Origin: Clostridia bacterium
GTDB taxonomy: Bacteria > Bacillota > Clostridia > Oscillospirales > CAG-272
Length of the DNA: 58,650 nt
Direction of reading: 5' to 3'
Assembly (NCBI GenBank): GCA_017522125.1
Contig: JAFXAC010000059.1
Location: 1 to 58,650, forward strand
Numbering within the stretch: position 1 is the first letter of the stretch; each line of letters begins with the position of its first letter. The notes beneath the pieces are model-generated. The model was not told where the DNA came from. It did no database searches and was given only the letters and a program-made list of their open reading frames with translations. Of this stretch, positions 1 through 58,650 are shown piece by piece. A program made the translations under genes and the position numbers.

Positions 1-61
1 CTTAACTTTCACTTTGCACTTTGCACTCTGCACTTTATTTGCCGTAAGGCAAATATTTCAC
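1..61 (-). repeat. Truncated GTGAAAT-word / mini-hairpin array (reverse orientation) downstream of the PAP2 gene
   Basis: The minus strand reads GTGAAATATTTGCC-ttac-GGCAAAT, then AAAGTGC/AGAGTGC/AAAGTGC/AAAGTGA 7-mers and GTTAAG at the window edge. The TGA of the first word (58-60) is the PAP2 stop codon. The grammar matches the arrays at 30.5, 51.7, 51.9 and 58.4 kb. Confidence 0.7.
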
Positions 62-7045: not shown

Positions 7046-8326
7046 TCATTTCTCAATGAGTTTTTCAATAGCCGCCATTCTTGCGCAGAGCGTAAGCACG
7101 CGCATAGCCTCGGTAAGCTCGGAGTACGAGGGGTAGGTGGGGGCAATACGGATGTTCGAGTCGTCGGGGTCTACGCCGTAGGGGTAGCTTGCGCCCGCGC
7201 CCGTCAGCTTAACGCCCGCGTCAAGACAGAGCCTGTAGGTGCGCTTTGCACATCCCTTTGCAACGAAAAGGCTGATAAAATAACCGCCGCGAGGCTCGGT
7301 CCAACGAGCTATACCCGTGCCGTCAAGGTCCTCGTGAAGAATGCCTATGACCGCCTCGAACTTCGGGCGGATAAGCTCCGCAAGCATCTTCATATGCGCG
7401 CGAATATTCTCGGCATTTCCGAAATACTTGACGTGGCGTATCTGATTTAACTTATCGTGTCCTATGGTCTGAATGCTCATAATGGGCTTGATATGCGCCA
7501 TATTGCAATCGGATGCGGCAAAAACAGCCACGCCCGCGCCCGGGAAGGATATCTTCGAGGTGGATGCGAAATAGAAAACGCGATCCTCCGTGCCGGCGTC
7601 CTCGCAAGCCTTGAATACGTTTAGAAGCTCTGGTGCATCGTCGTAAAGGTCGTGAACGGCGTAAGCGTTATCCCAGAAGATCCTGAAATCCTTTGCGGCG
7701 CACTTGAGTGAGGCAAGGCGGCGAACTACTCTATCGGAATAAGTAATGCCGTCGGGATTGGAAAATCTCGGACAGCACCAAATGCCCTTTATCGAGGCAT
7801 CGGACGCAACGAGGCGCTCGACCATATCCATATCGGGGCCGTCCGCAAGCATCGGGACGTTTATCATCTTGATGCCGAGCGACTGACAGATAGCAAAATG
7901 TCTGTCGTAGCCCGGTACGGGACAAATGAACTTGACCTCACCCTGCTTTACCCACGGCTCACAGCCGTCGGACGTACCGTAGAGCATACAACGCGCAACG
8001 GTGTCGTACATAAGGTTGAGCGAGGAGTTTCCTGCTACGATAAGGTTCTTTTCGGGAATATCAAGAAGCTCCGAGAAGAGCTTTTTAGCCTCGGGAATAC
8101 CGTCAAGCACGCCGTAGTTACGGTAGTCAAAGCCGCTTTCCGAGAAGCAATCCTCTGCCTCGGTCACTGCGGTGAGCATACCCGTAAGCTTGTCAAGCTG
8201 CTCCTTGGCGGGCTTACCGCGCGACAGGTCAAGACTTATATTTTTTGCCTTTACGGCGGCGTATTCTTCACTTAATTTCGAATAAAGCGCGCGCAGCTCC
8301 TCTGCGCTCATCTGGGAATAAAGCAT
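7046..8326 (-). CDS. PLP-dependent aminotransferase, class I/II fold
   Basis: 426 aa. The pattern fits fold-type I aminotransferases (LSRGKP..., [28 protein letters not shown] with the PLP lysine). Substrate is not assignable by eye. Confidence 0.7.
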
Positions 8327-29897: not shown

Positions 29898-30464
29898 ATG
29901 AGTGAAAGAAAAAGCTATAAAATGAATATCGCGGGCTGTGAGCGCGCGCTCCCCCTTTGTCCCCTCAACGACGAGCTGCAGATCGGCGCGTTCGTCATTT
30001 TTGGCGACCCCGAGCTGACCACCGCCTGCTCACGCGCGCTTCTTGACAAAGCGCCCGAATACGATTACCTCATCTCCGCCGAGGCGAAGGGCATTCCGCT
30101 CGTTCACGAGATGGCACGCCTTGCGGGAAATCAGAAATACTTCCTCGCACGCAAAGCGCCGAAGCTCTATATGACGGGCGTTTTCGAGGTCAAGGTTCGC
30201 TCCATCACCACCGACAAACAGCAGACGCTTTACCTTGACACCGCCGACGCGGAGCTGATGCGCGGCAAGCGTATCCTCATCGTCGACGACGTTATCTCCA
30301 CGGGAGAGTCGCTTCGCGCCGTTGAGGAGCTTGTCCGTCAGGCGGGCGGCATTTGCTGCGGCAGAATGGCAATTCTCGCCGAGGGCGAGGCGGCAGACCG
30401 CGACGACCTTATCTATCTTGAAAAGCTCCCGCTTTTCGATAAGGACGGAAAGGCGTTGAATTGA
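29898..30464 (+). CDS. Type I phosphoribosyltransferase family protein (purine PRT-like)
   Basis: PRPP-binding motif RILIVDDVISTGESL. 188 aa. Confidence 0.7.
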   Translation: MSERKSYKMNIAGCERALPLCPLNDELQIGAFVIFGDPELTTACSRALLDKAPEYDYLISAEAKGIPLVHEMARLAGNQKYFLARKAPKLYMTGVFEVKVRSITTDKQQTLYLDTADAELMRGKRILIVDDVISTGESLRAVEELVRQAGGICCGRMAILAEGEAADRDDLIYLEKLPLFDKDGKALN

Positions 30465-30590
30465 AAACACGACAGTGTTTTCAATTCAATGAAATCCGAC
30501 TCCGTCGGGTGAAATACGGCTTCGCCGTGTGAAATATTTCGCTACGCGAAATGTGAAATATTTGCCTTGCGGCAAACGTTAAGGAAAAAA
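30462..30590 (+). repeat. GTGAAAT-word / mini-hairpin array (forward orientation)
   Basis: TGAAAACAC-gaca-GTGTTTTCA. Then words at 30489, 30509, 30529 and 30553 (spacing 20/20/24 nt) alternating with the hairpins CCGAC-tcc-GTCGG, CGGC-ttc-GCCG, TCGC-tac-GCGA and TTTGCC-ttgc-GGCAAA. Ends in GTTAAGGAAAAAA. Confidence 0.85.
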
Positions 30591-30624
30591 ATCGGTCAAA
30601 GCGAGGCTTTGACCGATTTTGTTT
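30591..30624 (+). terminator. Intrinsic terminator closing the array
   Basis: ATCGGTCAAAGC-gag-GCTTTGACCGAT followed by TTTTGTTTT. Confidence 0.75.
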
Positions 30625-30652
30625 TATAAAAAAGAGCAGACCACCTTTAGCG

Positions 30653-51149: not shown

Positions 51150-51566
51150 TTATCCTATCGCGCCGCCGCCCTCAACTCCCGTTGTAGCGGGCAAGGTCGC
51201 CGTCGCGGCGGCAGTTCCAAGACCGAAGCTCACCGCGATGGCGGCGTTCACCTCGTTCATCAGTCCCTCGTCAAGATGCCCCATCTTTTCCTTGAGGCGG
51301 CGCTTGTCAAGCGTCCTTATCTGCTCAAGCAGTATCACAGAGTCGCGCGAGAGTCCTGCCTTTTCGGCGTATATGTCGATATGTGTGGGCAGGCGCGTTT
51401 TTCCCATTCTTGATGTAATCGCGGCGGCAATGACCGTTGGGCTGTATTTGTTGCCAACGTCGTTTTGTATTATCAGCACGGGGCGAAGTCCCCCCTGCTC
51501 CGAGCCGACAACGGGCGAGAGGTCGGCGTAAAATATATCTCCTCTTTTTATGCTTTGCATATTCAT
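51150..51566 (-). CDS. mazF: MazF/PemK (EndoA-like) type II toxin endoribonuclease, no adjacent antitoxin ORF
   Basis: [47 protein letters not shown]...LPTHIDI...[13 protein letters not shown] is the canonical MazF/EndoA core. Start at the ATG at 51566 (AAGGAG RBS). An extra Gly/Ala/Thr-rich ~22-aa C-terminal tail is present. Confidence 0.85.
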
Positions 51567-51680
51567 TTTCTGCTCCTTGCGGGTTTTGCTTACATTCATA
51601 TTTTTACCGCCCGCCGCCCCTCTTAAACAGGCGCACGGAATTTTGCGGTAAGGAATTTTTACCCTACGTTAGCAGTATAT

Positions 51681-51808
51681 GTGAAAACACCGTTGGTGTT
51701 TTCACGGTGAAATCCGACTTCGTCGGGTGAAATCCACCTGCGGTGGATGAAATATTTCGCTACGCGAAATGTGAAATATTTGCCTTGCGGCAAATATTAA
51801 GGAAAAAA
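51681..51808 (+). repeat. GTGAAAT-word / mini-hairpin array (forward), colinear with the 30462-30590 copy
   Basis: GTGAAAACAC-cgtt-GTGTTTTCAC. Words at 51707, 51727, 51747 and 51771 (spacing 20/20/24) with hairpins CCGAC-ttc-GTCGG, CCACC-tgc-GGTGG, TCGC-tac-GCGA and TTTGCC-ttgc-GGCAAA. Ends in ATTAAGGAAAAAA. Confidence 0.85.
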
Positions 51809-51846
51809 GCGTAAGAAACGCACGCGTTTCTTACGCTTTTGTTTTT
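51809..51846. terminator. Bidirectional terminator shared by the two convergent arrays
   Basis: GCGTAAGAAACG-cacg-CGTTTCTTACGC, flanked by AAAAAA and TTTTGTTTTT. Confidence 0.8.
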
Positions 51847-51873
51847 ATAATTGCTTTTTGCGTAGCAAAAAGC

Positions 51874-51977
51874 TACCTTCATATTTTGCGAAGCAAAATA
51901 TTTCACATTTGCCCTTGGGCAAATATTTCACACGGCGAAGCCGTATTTCACCCGTTCCGACGGAACGGATTTCACTG
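51874..51977 (-). repeat. GTGAAAT-word / mini-hairpin array (reverse orientation) starting at the stop codon of the polyferredoxin-thioredoxin gene
   Basis: ATTTCAC at 51900, 51925, 51945 and 51969 on the plus strand. Hairpins TTGC-gaa-GCAA, TTTGCCC-ttg-GGCAAA, CGGC-gaa-GCCG and CCGTTCCGA-CGGAACGG. The TGA at 51974-51972 is the gene's stop. Confidence 0.85.
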
Positions 51978-53546
51978 AAAACGCAAAGCGTTTTCTATCG
52001 CTTCGTTCAGCTCGTCGGCGGTGACCGAGCCCTGCTGAGTAAAGGTGATAACGCCCTCTGCGTTGATAACGACCGTCATCGGGTAGCTTCCCATTCCGCC
52101 GAGGATATCGTAGTAGGAAAGTCCGTTTATCTGGCGGTCCTGACAGAATTTTATCGCGTAGTCGGCGTATTTCGTCTGCGCCGCGCTGAGGTCTGCCCCG
52201 TTATTTATGAAGTCCTGAACTATCTCGCCCTCGTAAATGTACGAATGCACGGCAATTATCTGCACGTCGTCGCCGTAGTGGAACGCCGCCTCGTTAAAGT
52301 GCGGAAGCTCGGCAAGACACGGGCCGCAGGACGTGTACCAGAAATTGAGAACGGTCACCTTGCCGCGCAGATCCTTGATATTTAACACCTCGCCCGCCGC
52401 CGTGCCGTTTGAGGCGTAGGCGGTAAGGTCCTGCTCGTAGCAAAGACTTCCGACGGTATTGCCGTACGCCACCTCGCTGTCCGTGGGGGGCGCGGGCGGC
52501 TCTACGGTCGGCACCTTGTCGATGAAGTTGTAGTAGATGAGCGCGGCGGCAAGGAGTGCCGTAGCAAGCACGCCGCCGACTGCCTTGACTATCCTCATAC
52601 GCTTTTGGCGCTTGGCTTCAACGGCTTCCTTTTGCTCAGCCGTTGACTCGTCGCTGTCGAGAACGGCAACGTCGCTCGGCGCAAGCACGAAGCGCGAGCC
52701 CTTCCACTGGATAGCCTTGGTTGCGCAGTACTCCATACATTCGCCGCAGGAGATGCACTCGCGGTCACCGACCTTTCTTACGTCGAGCTTGCATTTGCTA
52801 ACGCAAAGTCCGCAATGCGTGCATTTCGACTCTTCAAGCTTGATACCGAACAGGCAGAACTTGTTGAAAAGGCCGTATATCGCGCCCATTGGGCAGAAAA
52901 AGCGGCAGAAAAAGCGGTAAATAAATACCGAAGCTACCACAAAGCCGACGAGAAGCACGAATTTCCAAGTGAAAAGCGGGCCGAGCATTCCAAGCTGAGA
53001 TTCGTTTGCGCTGTTGGAGAGCAGACCTACCGCGCCCTCAAGCGTGCCCGCGGGGCAGATGTACTTGCAAAAGCCGGGAAGCGGGAAATTCCGTCCCGCA
53101 AAAAGGAGAGGAATTGCGATAACGAACACCGCAAGGATTATGTATTTAAGGTACGAAAGCACGCGCGTCACGCGGTTCTTTTTCAGCTTCGGCGTTTTTA
53201 TTTTATAAAGAAGGTCCTGAATGAAGCCGAAGGGGCAAAGGAAGGAGCATATCCAGCGTCCGAACATCAGTCCGTAGAGCATAATTATGCCGAAAATGTA
53301 AAAAGGAAGCGTTTTTCCGCTGCTTGCAAGCGCGTTTTGGAGCGCGCCAAGCGGGCAGGCGGCGGACGCGCCGGGGCAGGAATAGCAGTTTATGCCGGGG
53401 GCGCACATTGCCTTAAGGTCGCCCTGATATATCTTTCCGTTGCCAAATCCCTTGAGATTTGCGTTAAAGAGCAGAGCCGCGTAAAGCTGAACGTATCTGC
53501 GCTTCGTCGGGCGGTGGTCATAGAGCCATTTAGTAAGCTTATTCAT
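51972..53546 (-). CDS. Membrane polyferredoxin (NapH/MauN-like, 2x[4Fe-4S]) fused via a TM helix to a TlpA/ResA-like thioredoxin domain
   Basis: CPxG-containing TM helices (CPFG, CPAG, CPMG). Ferredoxin motifs CTHCGLCVSKC and CISCGECMEYC. An additional TM segment (VGGVLATALLAAALIYY). C-terminal redoxin fold with VTVLNFWYTSCGPC. Confidence 0.75.
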   Translation of the reverse strand: MNKLTKWLYDHRPTKRRYVQLYAALLFNANLKGFGNGKIYQGDLKAMCAPGINCYSCPGASAACPLGALQNALASSGKTLPFYIFGIIMLYGLMFGRWICSFLCPFGFIQDLLYKIKTPKLKKNRVTRVLSYLKYIILAVFVIAIPLLFAGRNFPLPGFCKYICPAGTLEGAVGLLSNSANESQLGMLGPLFTWKFVLLVGFVVASVFIYRFFCRFFCPMGAIYGLFNKFCLFGIKLEESKCTHCGLCVSKCKLDVRKVGDRECISCGECMEYCATKAIQWKGSRFVLAPSDVAVLDSDESTAEQKEAVEAKRQKRMRIVKAVGGVLATALLAAALIYYNFIDKVPTVEPPAPPTDSEVAYGNTVGSLCYEQDLTAYASNGTAAGEVLNIKDLRGKVTVLNFWYTSCGPCLAELPHFNEAAFHYGDDVQIIAVHSYIYEGEIVQDFINNGADLSAAQTKYADYAIKFCQDRQINGLSYYDILGGMGSYPMTVVINAEGVITFTQQGSVTADELNEAIENALRFQ

Positions 53547-56691: not shown

Positions 56692-58422
56692 ATGACGGGA
56701 AAGGACAGGATGGTCGCCGACCTCAAGGCACAGCACGAGGCAAACCGAAGAGAATACGAGGACAAGCAAAGAAAGGCGAGGATAGACGCAAAGGAGCCGA
56801 TAGTAGACCCTGCGCTTTTTACGCATCTTGAAAACAACCGCCGTGCCGCGCCCCCACAACAGCAACAGCCTCAGCCGCAAGCACCGAGCGTGCCGAGAAA
56901 AGCTCCCGCCGCACCGCGCACAGCGCCGCAGGCGCAGAGCGCACGCCCCGCCCACAAAAAAGCTCCGCGCCGCGAGGGTGCGCCCATAAGCCCCGAGGCG
57001 GCTCGCGCCGCCGCCGCACGCCGCGCCGCCGAGGAGGAAAGGCGCAAGCGCGAAAAGGCTGAAAAAGAAAAGAAAAAGGAAGAAAAAAAGAAGTCCGTGC
57101 TTGCCATAAGGCACGCGGTAATGGGATATTTCGGCATTTCCATATGCATTCTGCTCATCATTTGCGGCATTGCCGCCAGCATTTTTCTGCTCGGGCTTAC
57201 CTCGCACGACGAGGCAGAGACGTTGCCCGACAAGCTGATCTATTATGCGGGCAAGGACAAGACCTCTCTGCCGTATTCATCGGTATATATTGGCGGAAAA
57301 TACTTCGTTAATATGACGGATATCGCCGCACGCGCAGGTCTTACCATGAGTGGCGACAGCGAGAGTATGGTATTCTCCGCGCCGCCGAATGAAAAGGCGA
57401 TATTCACCGTCGGCGCGGGCCACGCCCTCGTAAACGGCGTGAGCGTCAATATGGGCGCGCCGTGCTTTTTGCGCGACGGCTCGCTGTGGGTGAGCGCCGA
57501 TTTTGCCGACAGATATATCAGCGGTGTCAGCGTCACCCTCTCGGACGACAAAACCACGCTGACGGTGGAGATAGGCGAGGCTTGCTCGTTCCTTCTTAAA
57601 AACGAAGCTCCGCTTGACACGCCCACCGTGGACGACCTTCCGCCCTCGGTGGTGATACTGCCAAGCGACACGCCGCGCTACGAATTCACCAACGACCTTT
57701 CGTCCTATTACAAGTACATGGACCCCGCCGACCGCGACGCGTTTTTACTGCTTATCAACCCGTCGCGCCCCTTTGACGCGACCTACGAGCCGCCCGACCT
57801 TACGAGCGTTCTGAACGTCAAAAAGGGCAAAAACTACACGATGTCGCTCTACGCGGAAAAGGCACTTGAGGCACTTTTCGTAGAGATGTACGCCGCGGGC
57901 TACACCGACGTGGTGGTAACTATGGCGTATCGCTCCTACGAGGCACAGGAAAAGCAGTTCAACACATACGTTTACAACGAAAGATATTACTACCGCACGA
58001 ATTTTGAAGCAACGGGAAAATGGTTCAGCGACGCGGCGTACAAGGCCCTCGGCGAGAGCTATATCAAGGAAAAATATATCTCAAAGGGAAAGACCACGCT
58101 GACAAAGGAGGACGCCGAGCGCGTCGTCAGATCGTATTCCGCCGCCCCGGGCACGGGTGACCACCAGACGGGATTTTCCTGCGATATGCACAATCTGTCC
58201 TCTACGTCGGTGAAGTTTGAGAAGGAGGAGGCATACGCGTGGCTTCTTGAAAATGCGCACAAATTCGGCTTTATACAGCGTTATCCCAAGGACAAGGAAA
58301 AGATAACGGGAATGAGCTTTGAGCCGTATCATTGGCGCTTCGTAGGTCAGTACCACGCGGCAGTTATGCGTGAAAACGGACTCTGCCTTGAGGAGTACGT
58401 AGCACTGTTAGAAAAGGAGTGA
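56692..58422 (+). CDS. Membrane-anchored M15B (VanY-type) D,D-carboxypeptidase with a copper-amine-oxidase-N-like stalk domain
   Basis: Lys/Glu/Pro/Ala-rich cytoplasmic N-terminus and one TM segment. Stalk domain (YIGGKYFVNMTDIA...). C-terminal VanY core (SAAPGTGDHQTGFSCDM...FEPYHWRFVG). Confidence 0.75.
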   Translation: MTGKDRMVADLKAQHEANRREYEDKQRKARIDAKEPIVDPALFTHLENNRRAAPPQQQQPQPQAPSVPRKAPAAPRTAPQAQSARPAHKKAPRREGAPISPEAARAAAARRAAEEERRKREKAEKEKKKEEKKKSVLAIRHAVMGYFGISICILLIICGIAASIFLLGLTSHDEAETLPDKLIYYAGKDKTSLPYSSVYIGGKYFVNMTDIAARAGLTMSGDSESMVFSAPPNEKAIFTVGAGHALVNGVSVNMGAPCFLRDGSLWVSADFADRYISGVSVTLSDDKTTLTVEIGEACSFLLKNEAPLDTPTVDDLPPSVVILPSDTPRYEFTNDLSSYYKYMDPADRDAFLLLINPSRPFDATYEPPDLTSVLNVKKGKNYTMSLYAEKALEALFVEMYAAGYTDVVVTMAYRSYEAQEKQFNTYVYNERYYYRTNFEATGKWFSDAAYKALGESYIKEKYISKGKTTLTKEDAERVVRSYSAAPGTGDHQTGFSCDMHNLSSTSVKFEKEEAYAWLLENAHKFGFIQRYPKDKEKITGMSFEPYHWRFVGQYHAAVMRENGLCLEEYVALLEKE

Positions 58423-58495
58423 AATCCACCTTCGGTGGGTGAAATACGGCTTCGCCGTGTGAAATATTTTGCTTCGCAAAATGTTAAGGAAAAAA
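58419..58495 (+). repeat. GTGAAAT-word / mini-hairpin array (forward) starting at the stop codon of the M15 gene
   Basis: Words at 58419, 58439 and 58459 (20/20 spacing) with hairpins CCACC-ttc-GGTGG, CGGC-ttc-GCCG and TTGC-ttc-GCAA. Ends in GTTAAGGAAAAAA. The TGA at 58420-58422 is the stop codon. Confidence 0.85.
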
Positions 58496-58525
58496 GCGGA
58501 AGAAACGTGAGTTTCTTCCGCTTTT
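58496..58525. terminator. Bidirectional terminator
   Basis: GCGGAAGAAAC-gtga-GTTTCTTCCGC followed by TTTT, preceded by AAAAAA. Confidence 0.8.
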
Positions 58526-58650
58526 AATTTTCTGCAAATAATTCGCTTATCGAAACGCCGAAAAGCTCGGCAAGCTTGGGAATTAGAGTGATGTCAGGTG
58601 AGTTTGCCGAGGTTTCCCACTTGGAAACCGCTTGACACGTTACGCCGAGC
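58524..58650 (-). CDS. XRE-family HTH regulator, C-terminal fragment (5' end outside the window)
   Basis: The reverse translation reads ...LGVTCQAVSKWETSANSPDITLIPKLAELFGVSISELFAEN*, the recognition helix and C-terminal part of a Cro/C1-type HTH. Confidence 0.6.
   Translation of the reverse strand, partial: LGVTCQAVSKWETSANSPDITLIPKLAELFGVSISELFAEN

Follow-up and report, generated by a model that had tools for sequence, protein, structure and literature searches.

What is the element that fills the spacer at positions 51681-51977 of contig JAFXAC010000059.1 (Clostridia bacterium, assembly GCA_017522125.1), between a mazF-like open reading frame (ORF) and the gene for a Fer4/redoxin membrane protein (a polyferredoxin)? 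An earlier note on the same stretch of DNA, which we analysed over its full 58,650 nt and refer to as the window, had described the spacer as a convergent pair of arrays, in each of which a conserved 7-nt word alternates with short hairpins, around one shared terminator. We confirm this arrangement in both the sequence and its predicted folds. The note had not recognized the arrays as a described repeat or RNA family; four copies in the window, however, score above the gathering threshold of the Rfam family Gut-1 (RF01706), and we conclude that the feature consists of new Gut-1 members, paired around one bidirectional terminator. As to what Gut-1 is, the explanation we favour, with a probability that we put at roughly 0.55, is that it is a mosaic repeat, similar to repetitive extragenic palindromic (REP) sequences and bacterial interspersed mosaic elements (BIMEs), that sits at transcription-unit boundaries and is here co-transcribed as a hairpin stack in 3' untranslated regions (3' UTRs), its adjacency to mazF apparently being incidental.

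The spacer is made of two combs in opposite orientation, their short perfect hairpins linked by (G/A)TGAAAT words, on either side of one bidirectional intrinsic terminator. On the plus strand it opens with a hairpin that we call H0 (GTGAAAACACC-GTT-GGTGTTTTCAC, 51681-51705), evident in sequence and fold and present again at 30462, and continues with an array of four units (51706-51796) with words at 51707, 51727, 51747 and 51771 and with the stems CCGAC/GTCGG, CCACC/GGTGG, ATTTCGC/GCGAAAT and ATTTGCC/GGCAAAT. This array ends in the motif TTAAGGAAAAAA (51797-51808; GTTAAGGA... in related copies), whose A-run also serves as the upstream A-tract of the terminator. The terminator itself (51805-51850, readable as such on both strands) has the G+C stem, T-run and preceding A-run of a Rho-independent terminator; the stem is of 12-13 bp, or 16 pairs with its A/T extension, and the tail reads GTTTTT on the plus strand and TTTTTTCC on the minus strand. 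From the opposite side the minus-strand array, spanning 51977 down to about 51874, reaches the same terminator. Its four words (within 51883-51977) begin at 51975, 51951, 51931 and 51906, its stems are CCGTTCC/GGAACGG, ACGGC/GCCGT, ATTTGCC/GGCAAAT and ATTTTGC/GCAAAAT, and its 3' end (51853-51882, from sequence and fold) is an end module comprising the motif ATGAAGGTA and the hairpin GCTTTTTGC-TAC-GCAAAAAGC, which is also found at a strain locus, L211 (related loci are given here by L numbers). Inside the first GTGAAAT of this minus array, at 51972-51974, the Fer4/redoxin membrane-protein gene (51972-53546, minus strand) ends with its TGA stop codon. Both arms fold as hairpin combs, with z scores of -8.8 and -5.9 against shuffled sequence. 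The 23 occurrences of GTGAAAT in the window compare with an expectation of 6.7, none of 100 shuffles reached 23, and the word-plus-hairpin grammar found zero arrays across 415 kb of unrelated control loci.

That these arrays are Gut-1 follows from a scan of the window against Rfam, in which four copies, at 66.9, 65.6, 55.9 and 55.9 bits, exceed the RF01706 gathering score of 50 bits. The minus array accounts for the score of 65.6 bits (51895-51977) and the plus array for one of those of 55.9 bits (51682-51758); the plus array also scores 101 bits (51705-51782) with a model of our own, R1. The RF01706 consensus, UGAAAU-hairpin-GUGAAAU-hairpin-GUGAAAU-hairpin-UGUGAAAU, is the same as the grammar of the arrays, and 28 further matches above gathering cover all 20 of the related loci tested. 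Carriers are mostly metagenome-assembled genomes (MAGs) of Clostridia, Oscillospiraceae, Acutalibacteraceae, Ruminococcaceae and Christensenellaceae from animal and human guts, and the Rfam-confirmed loci include Akkermansia and Akkermansiaceae MAGs as well as one MAG binned as Bacteroidaceae. Gut-1 was first reported from environmental sequence of the human gut, with 43 representatives and no sequenced organism among its sources (Weinberg 2010, PMC2864571); above-gathering matches in gut MAGs from deer, goat, sheep, cattle, horse and chicken mean that the family is not confined to the human gut.

The same study scored Gut-1 'Y' as an RNA and 'n' both as a cis-regulatory element and as a riboswitch, and grouped it with non-coding RNAs unaffiliated with mRNAs in a one-sentence description that assigns no function (PMC2864571); its supplements hold no gene-context remark on Gut-1. 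A literature search on the GTGAAAT word returned only irrelevant results on a microRNA seed. We note that the Rfam type, 'Gene; sRNA' (an independent small-RNA gene), is an annotation and not part of the covariance model. The window copies have a stop codon in the first word and a terminator behind them, and are not independent genes because no room is left for a promoter. The earlier note had held that a match to a catalogued family with a known function would count against the arrays being something new, and this outcome has come about by half: the family is catalogued, and the other half is missing because Gut-1 has no assigned function.

The hairpins are conserved as structures. We built a covariance model from the four window copies and searched the window together with 99 loci from a pattern scan of genome contigs. 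Across the resulting 117 matches 96.9% of cells are paired (52% when shuffled), double-sided changes occur at all 17 pairs (722 cells) and the covariation score is 0.82, as against 0.17 for shuffled and about 0.05 for slid partners, all of these figures coming from an alignment that was fitted to the structure. The words are near invariant in this alignment, the conserved flank being (G/A)TGAAAT. The idea of a conserved word between variable, covarying stems thus stands, with the amendment that the word at 51747 is ATGAAAT and not GTGAAAT. Likewise, the word spacings that had been given for the two arms, 20/20/24 and 24/20/25 nt, are correct, while their interpretation as about two helical turns is not: across 305 units the spacing ranges over 15-29 nt, mostly 18-25, and is set by the length of the hairpin (stem plus loop). 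Spacing so broad, and governed by hairpin size, leads us to reject a helical phasing of the words on duplex DNA.

Gut-1 is present in five copies in the 58.65 kb of the window, behind unrelated genes (PAP2, phosphoribosyltransferase, Fer4/redoxin membrane protein and VanY), a copy number that comes from this one window and cannot safely be extrapolated. The word-plus-hairpin grammar recovers sister arrays at 30462, 58419 and 61 (the last on the minus strand). The first is a plus-strand module of H0, four units, GTTAAGGAAAAAAA and a terminator (30462-30640; 66.9 bits at 30487-30564), with the TGA stop of the phosphoribosyltransferase gene (30462-30464) sitting in the TGAAAA of H0. The second, also on the plus strand, has three units, GTTAAGGAAAAAA and a terminator (58419-58530; 55.9 bits at 58417-58492), and the TGA stop of the VanY-like gene (58420-58422) falls within its first word. 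The third (1-61, minus strand), with the TGA of the PAP2 gene (60 to 58) in its word, is a truncated or degenerate copy, cut by the window edge, that holds a single canonical word-plus-hairpin unit and then a tail of hairpin-less AGTGCAA/AGTGAAA words followed by GTTAAG; the same tail is found in L211. The three similar arrays listed by the earlier note (1-61, 30462-30590 and 58419-58495) are therefore real and intergenic, with the reservation that 1-61 has only one canonical unit. In all four gene-adjacent copies of the window (4/4) a stop codon lies within the first word. As a general rule this fails: it applies to this genome only, and elsewhere an opening hairpin usually intervenes. We also note that the 3' end of an HTH_3/XRE-like gene (58500-58650, minus strand; assigned from our own translation, with no profile check) converges on the terminator of the 58419 array.

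How the copies are placed relative to genes points to transcription-unit boundaries. Of the 117 model matches, 112 are intergenic. Adjacent matches on opposite strands are convergent in 34 cases and divergent in 2, so that the convergent pair is a standard architecture and not a peculiarity of this locus; pairs lie mostly between co-directional genes, as at 51681-51977. Single arrays have a co-oriented gene upstream in 35 cases and an opposed one in 9, and terminator-like sites are enriched 4-5 times on either side of arrays. Within the window, single arrays begin at the stop codon and lead into the terminator. The statement that the arrays are always at the 3' ends of genes does not survive for the plus arm of the pair: the mazF-like ORF (51150-51599; PF02452, the MazF/PemK family, 125 bits) is on the minus strand, and the spacer is thus upstream of mazF and its plus arm at the 3' end of no co-oriented gene.

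Pair elements elsewhere open with a terminator and a ...GAAAT word, finish in ATTTCACT and have sharp edges. Directly upstream of many of them, on the same strand, is a tRNA gene, and the pair starts right after the tRNA terminator (L028 94-166, L057 4186-4258, L094 779-851, L023 7403-7475, L002 2001-2072, and the upstream regions of L338 and L344). In L337 and L349, recombinase or phage-like DNA lies between a tRNA-like ...GCCA end and the pair, which suggests elements integrated at the tRNA. We reject a phage origin for the arrays themselves: in a scan of viral contigs, only two of 120 pattern matches were real arrays.

The copies also behave as a multicopy mosaic. The hairpins of the window belong to a small set of unit types, which return in the same order from copy to copy. 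Within single other genomes, modules of about 145-230 bp are 95-99% identical to one another, with sharp edges and unrelated flanks; between species the modules are 80-92% identical and the flanks non-homologous. At the phosphoribosyltransferase site, strains whose protein is 100% identical differ in the array by whole units, the DNA of the gene itself diverging by 0-6.7% among strains. Unit number, end modules and words (changed to GCGATAT or GTGATAT) all differ, H0 shows compensatory changes, and a reverse arm has been added. We found no close empty site. A search of metagenome contigs with the polyferredoxin protein returned only relatives of at most 54% identity, none with arrays, which served solely as a negative control, and an exact-sequence look-up of the PAP2 protein gave no entry. 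Contigs often end inside arrays; metagenome contigs of this species do so repeatedly, commonly just past a GTGAAAT word (L121, L122, L208, L209, L210 and L212), and the arrays therefore act as assembly-breaking repeats. Arrays with the same grammar and other words (CGAGATT, ATATAACC, GTTATATC, GCGATAT and GTGATAT) occur in L004 (2150-3500 and 5650-7100) and, downstream of the phosphoribosyltransferase gene, in L211 and L205, and some of them are joined end to end with GTGAAAT arrays. This raises the possibility that Gut-1 belongs to a wider word-plus-hairpin class.

The loops of the hairpins bear on whether the selected molecule is DNA or RNA. Among 314 distinct units, 206 are perfect Watson-Crick hairpins, and 182 of these 206 are closed by a C-G pair. 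On the word strand, loops of the type T..C make up 78 of 129 triloops and 41 of 64 tetraloops; those of the type G..A number 1 and 0. Read on the strand opposite the word, the same loops are c(GNA)g (78/129) or c(GNNA)g (41/64), and many units contain an exact GCGAAGC or GCGTAGC on the ATTTCAC strand. Such c(GNA)g and c(GNNA)g loops are hyperstable DNA mini-hairpin motifs (PMC13037366, PMC3201870), and DNA mini-hairpins also work as non-template-strand hairpins at ops sites (PMC11685472). The asymmetry of the loops suggests a constraint on single-stranded DNA. Examples of the C-T-N-C-G form in the window are found at 51734-51746, 51754-51770 and 51932-51944.

Under the REP/BIME-like explanation, copies of Gut-1 would spread and be reshaped as DNA, by way of single-stranded hairpins and of recombination from word to word, and a hairpin-specific enzyme possibly takes part in the copying. 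The single arrays and the minus arm in the window would be co-transcribed as a 3' UTR, from the UGA to the terminator, and the resulting hairpin stack could, if REP elements are a guide, stand in the way of 3'-exonucleases and act as a backup for termination. It is also possible that the first hairpin impedes the terminating ribosome, because it begins 4 nt past the stop codon. The plus arm would simply be the standard partner arm of a pair element, and no regulator of mazF. A stabilizing, termination-backup or ribosome-impeding role is thus something that we infer from layout and analogy. The earlier suggestion of a 3'-UTR role fits the single arrays of the window, which run from stop codon to terminator, and does not fit Gut-1 in general. 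Another suggestion of the note, a non-autonomous element mobilized through its hairpins, draws indirect support from the dispersed, sharp-edged, near-identical copies, the perfect palindromes and the DNA-type loops; the window encodes no Y1/HUH transposase.

Several observations weigh against this explanation. The arrays of tRNA-linked pairs lie after a terminator and before a promoter, which rules out a 3'-UTR role as a general one. The bias in how single arrays are oriented is as compatible with a role at the RNA level as with one at the DNA level. The counts of placement depend, in the related loci, on gene calls from our own crude ORF caller, which does reproduce the genes of the window. 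At the 51681-51977 locus itself, the 405-nt spacer is the same in a strain that differs at 15 sites in the flanking genes, which looks like constraint or recent homogenization and not like drift. No target-site duplications, a hallmark of miniature inverted-repeat transposable elements (MITEs), were recognized. Searched by tblastn with transposase queries, the window has no gene for a Y1/HUH (IS200/RAYT) or other transposase, and the sole IS200-like gene that this search returned from the window and the retrieved loci is an array neighbour in an Akkermansiaceae MAG (L007). This gene, for an IS200-like Y1 transposase (7300-7842, minus strand), is 190 nt after a Gut-1 array and scores 51 bits with NF033573, for which the cut-off is 55. 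It is flanked by direct copies, of about 40 nt, of a hairpin sequence at 7108-7150 and 7953-7995. A weak tblastn match to the IS200 transposase TnpA in L085 proved to be an epimerase-like ORF and was discarded.

The first alternative to be weighed is that Gut-1 acts purely at the RNA level: it would be a structured RNA, non-coding or part of a 3' UTR, in which an RNA-binding protein or RNase recognizes the GAA linkers and the A-U/U.G bases of the helices, and the multicopy pattern would reflect selection at many mRNA ends and not copying. We consider this unlikely, while granting that a good deal speaks for it. Rfam and Weinberg 2010 class Gut-1 as an RNA on the strength of covariation, the predicted RNA folds are strong, and in these folds the AU of a word and the GU of the next word extend each helix by A-U and U.G pairs on the word strand only. 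The preponderance of co-oriented genes (35:9) upstream of single arrays, the order of stop codon, array and terminator in the window and the conservation of the spacer between strains also count in its favour. Against it, G.U mispairs are not in excess over A.C mispairs, single mispairs being 12 of the G.U type versus 19 of the A.C type among units and 29 versus 18 in the model alignment. The loops on the word strand are not of the types that are stable in RNA, and match DNA mini-hairpins on the other strand. Moreover, near-identical, sharp-edged copies at unrelated loci argue for copying and not for convergent selection, the window leaves no room for promoters, and many arrays are orphan arms or come after a terminator.

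A second alternative takes up the earlier idea of a docking platform, for which we have a candidate protein. All the DNA that was fetched contains ten genes for a four-helix-bundle protein (PF05635, 70-87 bits; TIGR02436, 85-98 bits), and each of the 10 is no more than about 150 nt away from an array (L036 1046-1390; L004 6174-6515; L006, L019, L023, L047, L051, L064, L315 and L317). In a reciprocal test, 20 genomic places were fetched by means of the four-helix-bundle protein alone (L337-L356, with the gene at 901-1248 and the same gene spacing in all 20), and five were read in sequence. In 5 of these 5, a complete Gut-1 pair (terminator, GTGAAAT arm, ATTTCAC arm) and then a promoter precede the gene, the promoter being near consensus (TTCACA-17-TGTATAAT). 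A gene of the MazG family (PF03819, 27 bits) overlaps and follows the four-helix-bundle gene in the protein-fetched loci. The cassette follows different tRNA genes and integrated elements at different places. The protein has at least 8000 close homologues, many of them on very short contigs, and neither it nor its MazG partner has a match in PADLOC. In L019 (about 1000-1500), tandem words that lack hairpins (AGAAATT/AGAAATG, then ATTTCAC-ATTGCTC) stand on either side of the gene and resemble the degenerate tail at 1-40 of the window. PF05635 resembles Avd, a nucleic-acid-handling accessory protein of diversity-generating retroelements (DGRs; PMC10053308).

In its simple form, this alternative holds that the arrays, which are of 3-5 uniform units once folded, are cis docking combs, as single-stranded DNA or RNA, for the PF05635/TIGR02436 protein, and that dispersed arrays are further sites or derivatives of the cassette. 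The constant proximity of gene and pair and the likeness to Avd recommend it, and we nevertheless regard it as doubtful. No PF05635 gene lies within the 58-kb window despite its five arrays, the operon may merely adjoin a preferred landing site such as the end of a tRNA gene, and the PF05635 family is far more widespread than Gut-1. A bolder version, to which we accord a similarly low likelihood, would make the arrays hairpin combs of single-stranded DNA, or of both DNA and RNA, that serve as cis sites for the four-helix-bundle protein and its MazG-family partner. Protein and dispersed repeats would then conceivably form an unrecognized system that marks, remodels or propagates transcription-unit boundaries in gut Clostridia and Akkermansia, and, just as speculatively, the cassette of pair plus promoter would be its 'autonomous' form and the arrays of the window solo derivatives.

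Two further alternatives have very little to recommend them. The arrays could act on the mazF-like gene, as an RNA antitoxin of the type III kind or as a 5' regulatory structure, and they do fill the whole region upstream of mazF, where there is no MazE-like antitoxin ORF. This is very improbable: MazF is a family of type II toxins; four unrelated genes in the window, and many others outside it, are followed by identical modules; the units differ from one another, unlike the tandem repeats of ToxI; and the facing arm is antisense to mazF transcription, with a terminator separating the other arm. The adjacency to mazF appears incidental. The mazF-like protein has a C-terminal tail rich in Gly, Ala and Thr, and a gene for a class II fructose-bisphosphate aldolase lies downstream of its gene. 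Hardly more credible is the idea of translation devices, which would either provide UGA stops in each of the three frames or form chains of GUGA start/stop mini-ORFs along which ribosomes could hop: the word does hold overlapping GUG and UGA, 20-nt spacings as in the window would close mini-ORFs of 7 codons and the gene stop is in the first word of all four gene-adjacent window copies, but the spacing of the 305 units modulo 3 (119/105/81 for residues 0/1/2) is free of any frame constraint and makes the needed class the rarest, which refutes the idea as a general rule, and elsewhere than in this genome the stop codon falls outside the first word.

In Rfam, Gut-1 has stood as an orphan since 2010, and the arrays, belonging to a family already catalogued, are not undescribed. 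What is new is that Gut-1 is abundant, modular and fast-evolving, that it occupies the ends of genes in many uncultured Clostridia of the gut, where it breaks metagenome assemblies, and that it may be an element of DNA and not of RNA. If the analogy with REP sequences and BIMEs is true, Gut-1 would correspond, in Clostridia, to a class of repeats known chiefly from Proteobacteria, and would matter for the stability of mRNA, for termination and for the plasticity of genomes in major gut lineages. The link to the Avd-like four-helix bundle, in turn, offers a testable candidate protein partner for two orphan families at once.

Lastly, we compare the arrays with known systems. On anatomy we reject a mazF regulator, a type III toxin-antitoxin system, a CRISPR array and an integron attC site; the end motif GTTAAGG is only loosely like the GTTRRRY of attC, and is variable. 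CRISPR arrays have identical repeats of 24-48 nt and non-palindromic spacers, whereas here 7 nt are conserved between variable palindromes of 11-19 nt, and a match to CRISPR-DR57 is below threshold (19 bits versus a gathering score of 39). With ToxI-like type III systems the spacer shares a tandem array of short period beside a toxin gene and a terminator, but its units are non-identical, toxin-less loci carry such arrays too and the arm next to mazF is antisense. The DNA mini-hairpins GCGNAGC and GCGNNAGC, known from the phage G4 origin, ssiA and ops (PMC13037366, PMC11685472), have the C-G-closed c(GNA)g or c(GNNA)g loops of about 60% of the unit hairpins; they are single, with roles in priming or in recruiting NusG paralogues, whereas those of Gut-1 are arrayed by the hundreds. 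Compared with Gut-1 as entered in Rfam, the window copies have the same UGAAAU words between three covarying hairpins and the same association with the gut. They differ in running from stop codon to terminator, whereas the Rfam entry is a stand-alone small RNA from human-gut reads, in exceeding the 77-nt model (by an opening hairpin, 3-5 units, an end motif and a terminator), and in being multicopy and in opposed pairs, found also in animal-gut MAGs of Clostridia and Akkermansia.

The closest comparison is with the REP sequences and BIMEs of Enterobacteria and Pseudomonas and the SMAG elements of Stenotrophomonas. These are high-copy extragenic palindromes with a conserved flanking word and mosaic subfamilies of stems; they are found between operons or at 3' ends, commonly as inverted dimers, and the number of units varies between strains. 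Gut-1 likewise consists of short extragenic palindromic units assembled as mosaics, with five copies in 58.65 kb and units swapped between strains. So far no gene for a REP-associated tyrosine transposase (RAYT), which REP repeats flank, has been found by tblastn in the window and most loci, the one IS200-like gene, in L007, being below cut-off. The conserved word, GTGAAAT or more precisely (G/A)TGAAAT, takes the place of the GTAG that stands 5' of the REP palindrome. Finally, the units of Gut-1 are direct within an arm and not alternating, and its stems are much more variable, with the linker as the conserved part.

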